From Escherichia coli (GTDB lineage Bacteria > Pseudomonadota > Gammaproteobacteria > Enterobacterales > Enterobacteriaceae), in the NCBI RefSeq assembly GCF_003334335.1, contig NZ_QOWQ01000043.1: 36,574 nt of DNA; one strand, given 5' to 3'. The first letter of the stretch is position 1. Every line of letters starts with the position of its first letter. Under the pieces are notes generated by a model, which searched no databases, was not told the DNA's origin, and worked only from the letters and a program-made list of their open reading frames with translations. This document shows, in pieces, positions 27,469 through 27,597 of this stretch. Position numbers and translations under genes: made by a program.

Positions 27469-27559
27469 GTTATTCTCCCTATGAAGCCGACAACCATAAG
27501 TCTAACAAATGTTAAGCCATTTTCCTGCCAGGAATGAATTTAATTAATCCTTGATAATC

Positions 27560-27596
27560 AAAGGGAAATAATAAGGCGTCATTAGACGCCTTATTA
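27560..27596 (-). terminator. terminator-like hairpin downstream of trkA
   Basis: Perfect inverted repeat TAATAAGGCGTC-ATTA-GACGCCTTATTA (27569-27596) one nucleotide after the trkA stop, followed on the minus strand by UUUCCCUUU. Confidence 0.5.
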
Positions 27597-27597
27597 A

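Follow-up and report, generated by a model that had tools for sequence, protein, structure and literature searches.

A hairpin abutting the trkA stop codon of Escherichia coli is most likely an ordinary intrinsic terminator ahead of mscL

The window, that is, the whole stretch of DNA analyzed here (36,574 nucleotides of E. coli contig NZ_QOWQ01000043.1, assembly GCF_003334335.1), runs in reverse relative to MG1655, such that an MG1655 coordinate equals 3465492 minus the window coordinate. The region under study matches many E. coli genomes at 100% identity and is annotated there as trkA, mscL, and arfA, and the upstream neighbor of trkA is rsmB. The whole trkA-mscL spacer occupies 27469-27597 and carries a perfect palindrome, whose plus-strand arms are TAATAAGGCGTC (27569-27580) and GACGCCTTATTA (27585-27596), flanking the loop ATTA (27581-27584). 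Exactly 1 base (27597) separates the trkA stop codon from the palindrome, and 100 nt separate the palindrome from the mscL ATG. These coordinates confirm the position given in the preliminary description, which had placed arms of 12+12 bp 1 nt past the trkA stop and ~100 bp before mscL. The features of the locus, in the direction of trkA transcription, are as follows:

27598-28974, minus strand: trkA, from the list of open reading frames (ORFs).
27598-27600, minus strand: trkA stop codon UAA; the hairpin begins 1 nt further.
27591-27599, minus strand: A-rich tract AAUUAAUAA (6/9 A), 5' of the core.
27569-27596, minus strand: full hairpin with a 12-bp stem and a 4-nt loop, UAAUAAGGCGUC-UAAU-GACGCCUUAUUA.
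27575-27590, minus strand: GC-rich core GGCGUC-UAAU-GACGCC, -10.2 kcal/mol, the portion that covaries across genera.
27559-27574, minus strand: U-rich tract UUAUUAUUU (7/9 U), then CCCUUUG, 3' of the core.
27499-27527, minus strand: putative mscL promoter, from conservation and consensus.
27058-27468, minus strand: mscL, from the list of ORFs.
26843-27061, plus strand: arfA, converging on mscL (27058-27468, minus strand) with an ORF overlap of 4 nt.

At the far end of this arrangement, a published 3' end on the mscL strand (MG1655 3438498; window 26994) falls inside arfA, antisense to it, and an arfA-derived small RNA, yrdG, is listed at the arfA/mscL overlap region in the MG1655 annotation. 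The antisense interplay of arfA and mscL is already known (10.1101/2022.11.21.517365).

Read from the trkA stop on the strand shared by trkA and mscL, the layout is UAA-U-UAAUAAGGCGUC-UAAU-GACGCCUUAUUA-UUUCCCUUUG, and the corresponding sense RNA can be divided into UAAUAA-GGCGUC-UAAU-GACGCC-UUAUUA-UUUCCCUUU. Once the A·U pairs are trimmed, the core stem is 6 bp (GGCGUC/GACGCC). The A-rich tract on its 5' side pairs with the U-tract on its 3' side to extend the stem to 12 bp, while the other strand reads a weaker U-tract. The 12-bp palindrome is a GC core plus A-tract/U-tract pairing, the usual layout of an intrinsic terminator. A consensus scan likewise returned the element as terminator-like, with 12 stem pairs (five of them GC), a loop of 4 nt, and a tail rich in T, the sequence past the full stem (UUUCCCUUUG) passing the 5/8 threshold of the scan. 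The U-tract is interrupted (UUAUUAUUUCCC) and of moderate quality, having a T score of 2.9 vs 4.1-4.5 in the two ribosomal-operon terminators of the window. The trkA RNA is predicted to end at approximately 27568-27565 (MG1655 ~3437924-3437927).

Palindromes of this kind are not expected by chance. First-order Markov simulation of the window (loops of 3-8 nt, 300 simulations, maximum 1) gave an expectation of 0.017 perfect 12-bp arms per window, against three distinct cases observed. The perfect hairpin palindromes of the window with arms of at least 12 bp are:

17201-17230: following rpsQ, before rplN.
25889-25918: following rplQ.
27569-27596: following trkA.

All three follow genes that close operons, those after rpsQ and rplQ lying where the S10 and alpha ribosomal operons end. 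Folded as a 76-nt sense RNA, the trkA element reached -21.9 kcal/mol, compared with -8.5 +/- 2.5 for shuffled sequences (z = -5.5; 0/200 as good), and the antisense RNA, read from the plus strand, gave z = -3.6. When 100 nt of preceding coding sequence were included, the hairpin was still the dominant element of the minimum-energy fold and of the centroid fold alike, and neither showed a competing antiterminator.

We also ranked hairpins across the window on both strands with a crude score combining hairpin energy and T-tract, for which only the ranks are meaningful; the formula is reportedly that of d'Aubenton-Carafa et al. The trkA hairpin ranked fourth, behind the rplQ terminator, which took two of the first three ranks (one for each strand), and the hairpin following rpsQ (17203-17228). 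Ranks 5 and 7 went to a hairpin internal to fmt and to the fmt-rsmB terminator, the trkA hairpin being level with the former and above the latter. The internal fmt hairpin (31210-31232, minus strand) coincides with a Term-seq 3' end at MG1655 3434287 (window 31205), and the fmt-rsmB intergenic hairpin, GCCCGG-TCT-TGCCGGGC followed by GTTTTTAT (30298-30314, minus strand), with one at MG1655 3435199 (window 30293), both from supplementary file 1 of Adams et al. 2021. Given these two ends, transcription entering rsmB-trkA would already have passed a terminator. The rplQ palindrome (25889-25918) scores as a terminator on both strands, and the rplQ 3' end of Adams et al. (3439590; window 25902) lies inside its 5' arm, outside the U-tract.

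To place the element in a wider context, TrkA was scanned in one genome per species, yielding 80 loci. Synteny of trkA and mscL was retained in most sampled Enterobacterales, with spacers of 69-160 nt. Taking the best hairpin within the first 100 nt past the trkA stop, each of the 22 other Enterobacteriaceae loci whose spacer is full-length, among them loci of Escherichia, Citrobacter, Enterobacter, Kluyvera, Pluralibacter, Pseudocitrobacter, Phytobacter, Siccibacter, Cedecea, Mangrovibacter, and Shimwellia, has a strong hairpin beginning 1-8 nt past the stop. These orthologous hairpins range from -11.5 to -19.5 kcal/mol, and both stems and loops differ in sequence. At least six of the nine bases directly after the core are T in 14 of the 23 copies (the window and 13 other loci), while T-tails are poor in about a third of the orthologous hairpins (e.g., loci L014, L015, L020, L021, and L023). 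No comparable stop-adjacent hairpin was found in Erwinia, Pantoea, Serratia, Yersinia, Dickeya, Photorhabdus, or the more distant genera.

Sixteen Enterobacteriaceae sequences from 16 genera, their hairpins in register, were aligned for analysis of covariation. RNAalifold recovered a 7-bp helix with compensatory double changes in six of its seven pairs, and 98.2% of the 112 alignment cells pair. Compensatory cells numbered 21, compared with 6.6 +/- 2.3 in shuffles, none of 500 reaching the observed value, and sliding the 3' partners by 1-3 columns lowered pairing to 37-64%. Only five columns of the alignment are invariant; the stem bases vary between genera while the structure is conserved. 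Turnover is visible even within Escherichia, where one pair takes three forms: U-A across the main E. coli population, U·G in strain N96 and E. albertii, and C-G in locus L002.

The conserved fold has a strand polarity. Across the alignment the helix contains five G·U pairs and zero A·C, and across genera the downstream T-rich tails usually exceed the upstream A-tracts. Folding energies of the sense and antisense RNAs did not differ significantly (16 of 25 loci favoring sense; Wilcoxon p = 0.10), so the polarity is read from G·U counts and T-tails. Because G·U is tolerated only in the sense RNA, being a mismatch in the antisense RNA and in a DNA dyad, the selected object would be the RNA hairpin of the trkA transcript. 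Sequence comparison thus suggests that what is selected is the RNA fold of the sense strand rather than a DNA operator.

Within E. coli, 5351 of 5426 complete genomes carry the identical 32-mer spanning the palindrome, at a single locus in each; the apparent two places per genome reflect a palindrome matching both strands. Several departures from this arrangement were observed. In the Pseudescherichia type (Escherichia sp. ESNIH1, L017:3375-3447; Pseudescherichia vulneris, L072:3375-3447), the spacer is 69 nt, the terminator region is deleted, and the promoter block described below is kept; in this genus trkA and mscL are probably co-transcribed. An IS200C lies exactly between the trkA stop and the hairpin in E. 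coli Z1323HEC0462 (L085:790-1505), leaving the hairpin intact on the mscL side, and in strain ET5 an IS1A falls within the match to window 27000-28000. A rare weakening allele was found in a single strain, E. coli 2015C-4944 (L084:180-230), which reads GACACC for GACGCC in the 3' arm, resulting in a C·A mismatch in the core.

When whole spacers of 27 Enterobacterales were compared, the most conserved block was ATGGAAAAT-N-TTTGTTAGACTTA, located downstream of the hairpin and present even in families without the terminator. By sequence, this block is probably the mscL promoter. In the window it comprises a -35-like CAGGAA (27527-27522), a 17-bp spacer, and an extended -10, TGTTAGACT (27507-27499), whose end lies 30 nt from the mscL ATG. 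In reporters, a 321-bp mscL promoter fragment, including the first 11 codons, responds to RpoS and osmolarity (10.1101/2022.11.21.517365), and the putative promoter is compatible with that fragment. With a conserved promoter downstream of it, the hairpin would belong to the trkA 3' UTR and not to an attenuator in an mscL leader.

Between the terminator and this promoter lies a second, imperfect AT-rich inverted repeat, CCTTTGATTATCAAGG (27549-27566, minus strand). Its counterparts in other Enterobacteriaceae read TTAACCC-N9-11-GGGTTAA or AATCCTTT-N7-AAAGGATT, and the CC/GG is nearly invariant. We rejected this repeat as an RNA hairpin: RNAalifold predicted no structure, and a hand-drawn helix paired 60% of cells without covariation. 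Of 500 shuffles, 478 did as well, and the repeat doubled as a negative control when covariation was tested. It may represent a DNA site above the mscL promoter (at about -55 to -75), or simply an AT-rich upstream element that is conserved.

Taken together, the palindrome is most likely an intrinsic (Rho-independent) terminator in the trkA 3' UTR, closing the (def-fmt-)rsmB-trkA unit. It has a GC stem-loop, a U-rich tract, a sense placement just past a stop codon, and a structure kept in orthologs. The preliminary description had proposed that the palindrome terminates transcription arriving from rsmB-trkA ahead of mscL, a proposal that gains from the anatomy, the position at the gene end, the covariation, and the downstream mscL promoter. 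We infer from sequence and comparative data that RNA polymerase terminates here, and likewise the efficiency of the event and the start of the mscL transcript. The element resembles canonical intrinsic terminators (lambda tR2; fmt-rsmB, 30314-30298, minus strand; rplQ, 25889-25918) in its GC stem-loop followed directly by a U-rich tract, in its sense orientation just past a stop codon where a unit ends, and in the preservation of structure by compensatory changes. Unlike these, its U-tract is broken by A and then CCC, and the hairpin stands only 1 nt past the stop.

Following the established model of intrinsic termination, polymerase exiting trkA would transcribe the A-rich tract, the core GGCGUC-UAAU-GACGCC, and then UUAUUAUUU. 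A hairpin would fold from this core in the nascent RNA, the RNA:DNA hybrid ahead of it being all A/U, and the stem would then grow to 12 bp by A-tract/U-tract pairing, drawing the U-tract from the hybrid. Release of the transcript would occur ~7-9 nt past the core. In this scheme mscL would be insulated from upstream transcription, its own promoter being situated ~50-70 nt further downstream. A ribosome on the trkA stop would cover the 5' arm, given that the hairpin begins 1 nt and the core 7 nt past the stop, so incomplete termination is probable and some read-through into mscL would be expected.

By analogy with characterized terminators, the element is probably leaky, with some read-through into mscL, because its U-tract is interrupted and its hairpin abuts the stop codon. 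Placed a few base pairs after a gene, lambda tR2 is almost completely repressed in vivo, and its full efficiency is reached only beyond ~27 nt, the stop-bound ribosome blocking hairpin folding (Li et al. 2016, PMC4824070); stop-proximal terminators were described by Wright and Hayward 1987 (as cited in PMC4824070). The distance between the trkA stop and its hairpin is far below ~27 nt, which likens it to these translation-sensitive terminators, although Li et al. used engineered lambda tR2 constructs whereas the trkA case is known by sequence. An earlier suggestion that the palindrome might attenuate transcription is therefore reasonable if taken to mean a leaky terminator, given a hairpin that abuts the stop and the repression by ribosomes reported for such an arrangement (PMC4824070).

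We searched published data for RNA 3' ends at the site. Among the curated Term-seq 3' ends of Adams et al. 2021, none falls within MG1655 3437000-3437999, and supplementary files 1-3 of that study contain no trkA or mscL entry and no Rho region at 3437xxx. In this the trkA site differs from the fmt and rplQ sites, which have 3' ends in the same study. Absence from these lists may reflect sub-threshold depth; a low Term-seq signal is possible at trkA because the gene lies downstream of the fmt terminator, which itself scores low there. Even so, the lists fail to confirm termination at this site and thus weigh against the terminator reading. The SMRT-Cappable-seq supplement and one terminator-prediction supplement had no match at this site, the hairpin sequence was unmatched in full-text literature, and a search combining mscL, trkA, and terminator returned nothing relevant.

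The element shares with bidirectional terminators a perfect dyad whose GC core is flanked by an A-rich tract on its 5' side and a U-rich tract on its 3' side, such that both strands encode a hairpin with a U-tail, and it might in addition halt antisense arfA read-through across mscL before it reaches trkA. The plus strand indeed reads GGCGUC-AUUA-GACGCC-UUAUUAAUU, with 6/9 U, ranks 10th in the window-wide score, and folds with the z of -3.6 given above. We nevertheless regard this additional function as unlikely. Across genera, A is usually less enriched upstream of the core than T is downstream, each sense G·U becomes an A·C mismatch in the antisense RNA, and arfA transcripts are reported to end inside arfA (Rho region 3438487, minus strand; Adams et al.). 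Moreover, trkA and mscL are co-directional, with no convergent gene end at the palindrome, and the comparative data favor the sense strand.

Somewhat more doubtful is that the hairpin serves as a 3'-end protector, whereby transcription would end further downstream, in a Rho-dependent or diffuse manner, and 3'-to-5' exonucleases would trim back to a stable hairpin that sets and stabilizes the 3' end of trkA mRNA. Retention of the hairpin despite weak T-tails in several orthologs is consistent with this, and the covariation reflects selection on an RNA fold, not on termination as such. Against it, T makes up at least 6/9 of the bases directly after the core in E. coli and at 13 other loci, the mscL promoter within ~50 nt leaves little room for a Rho site, and supplementary file 2 of Adams et al. 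lists no Rho-dependent region here.

The preliminary description had also raised the possibility of a protein-binding site, i.e., an operator at which a dimeric transcription factor would regulate mscL or trkA. A perfect dyad ~75-100 bp upstream of the putative mscL start would suit such a site, as would the regulation of mscL by RpoS and osmolarity (10.1101/2022.11.21.517365). The comparative data speak strongly against it, and an operator here is very improbable. Half-sites change between genera while pairing is kept through compensatory substitutions, and G·U variants spoil the DNA symmetry, so that neither conserved half-sites nor a conserved dyad was found. The palindrome occurs as one copy per E. 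coli genome (at 32-nt resolution), is deleted in Pseudescherichia where the promoter is retained, and sits too far upstream, outside the conserved promoter block.

Equally hard to credit is an attenuator or riboswitch-like element in an mscL leader, with a promoter upstream of or within the hairpin: although a weak sigma-70-like match, TTAATA-18-TATTAT (9/12), overlaps the hairpin, the conserved promoter block lies downstream of it and would place it outside the mscL 5' UTR, and we found no Rfam family, no alternative antiterminator fold, and no leader ORF. The sigma-70-like match was rejected as a promoter, since such matches occur at the level expected from shuffles (2 found, 2.3 expected) and this one draws on the AT-rich base of the stem. 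The Rfam search returned only sub-threshold chance matches, to the Histone3 stem-loop (18.4 bits; gathering threshold 34) and to a snoRNA.

A REP/BIME element, likewise an intergenic palindrome after a gene, was also rejected. The REP consensus, with which we take the palindrome to share the short string ACGCCTTAT, was searched for across the window and gave zero matches at up to 3 mismatches. The trkA element differs from REP/BIME in being single-copy, a single locus per genome, in lacking the GCCGGAT/ATCCGGC ends, and in having a U-tract.

The feature is most likely an ordinary intrinsic terminator of a well-known kind. It would mark where the rsmB-trkA transcription unit ends, which has little importance beyond annotation, and by sequence mscL would be insulated, driven by its own promoter conserved across Enterobacterales. 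Given that the hairpin adjoins the stop codon in every genus that carries it, translation-sensitive, leaky termination is predicted, with some co-transcription of trkA and mscL. That the 1-8 nt spacing between stop and hairpin, seen at every Enterobacteriaceae locus examined, is itself functional and makes the terminator a translation-gated valve is a speculative proposal that we think unlikely to hold. If true, ribosomes following close behind polymerase would block the 5' arm and permit read-through into mscL, whereas lagging trkA translation would lead to termination. Expression of the mechanosensitive channel would then be coupled to translation of the K+-uptake regulator, atop the mscL promoter controlled by RpoS and osmolarity. 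The locus offers a clean textbook example of a terminator that preserves its fold through sequence turnover, with the U-A, U·G, and C-G series in Escherichia as one instance.
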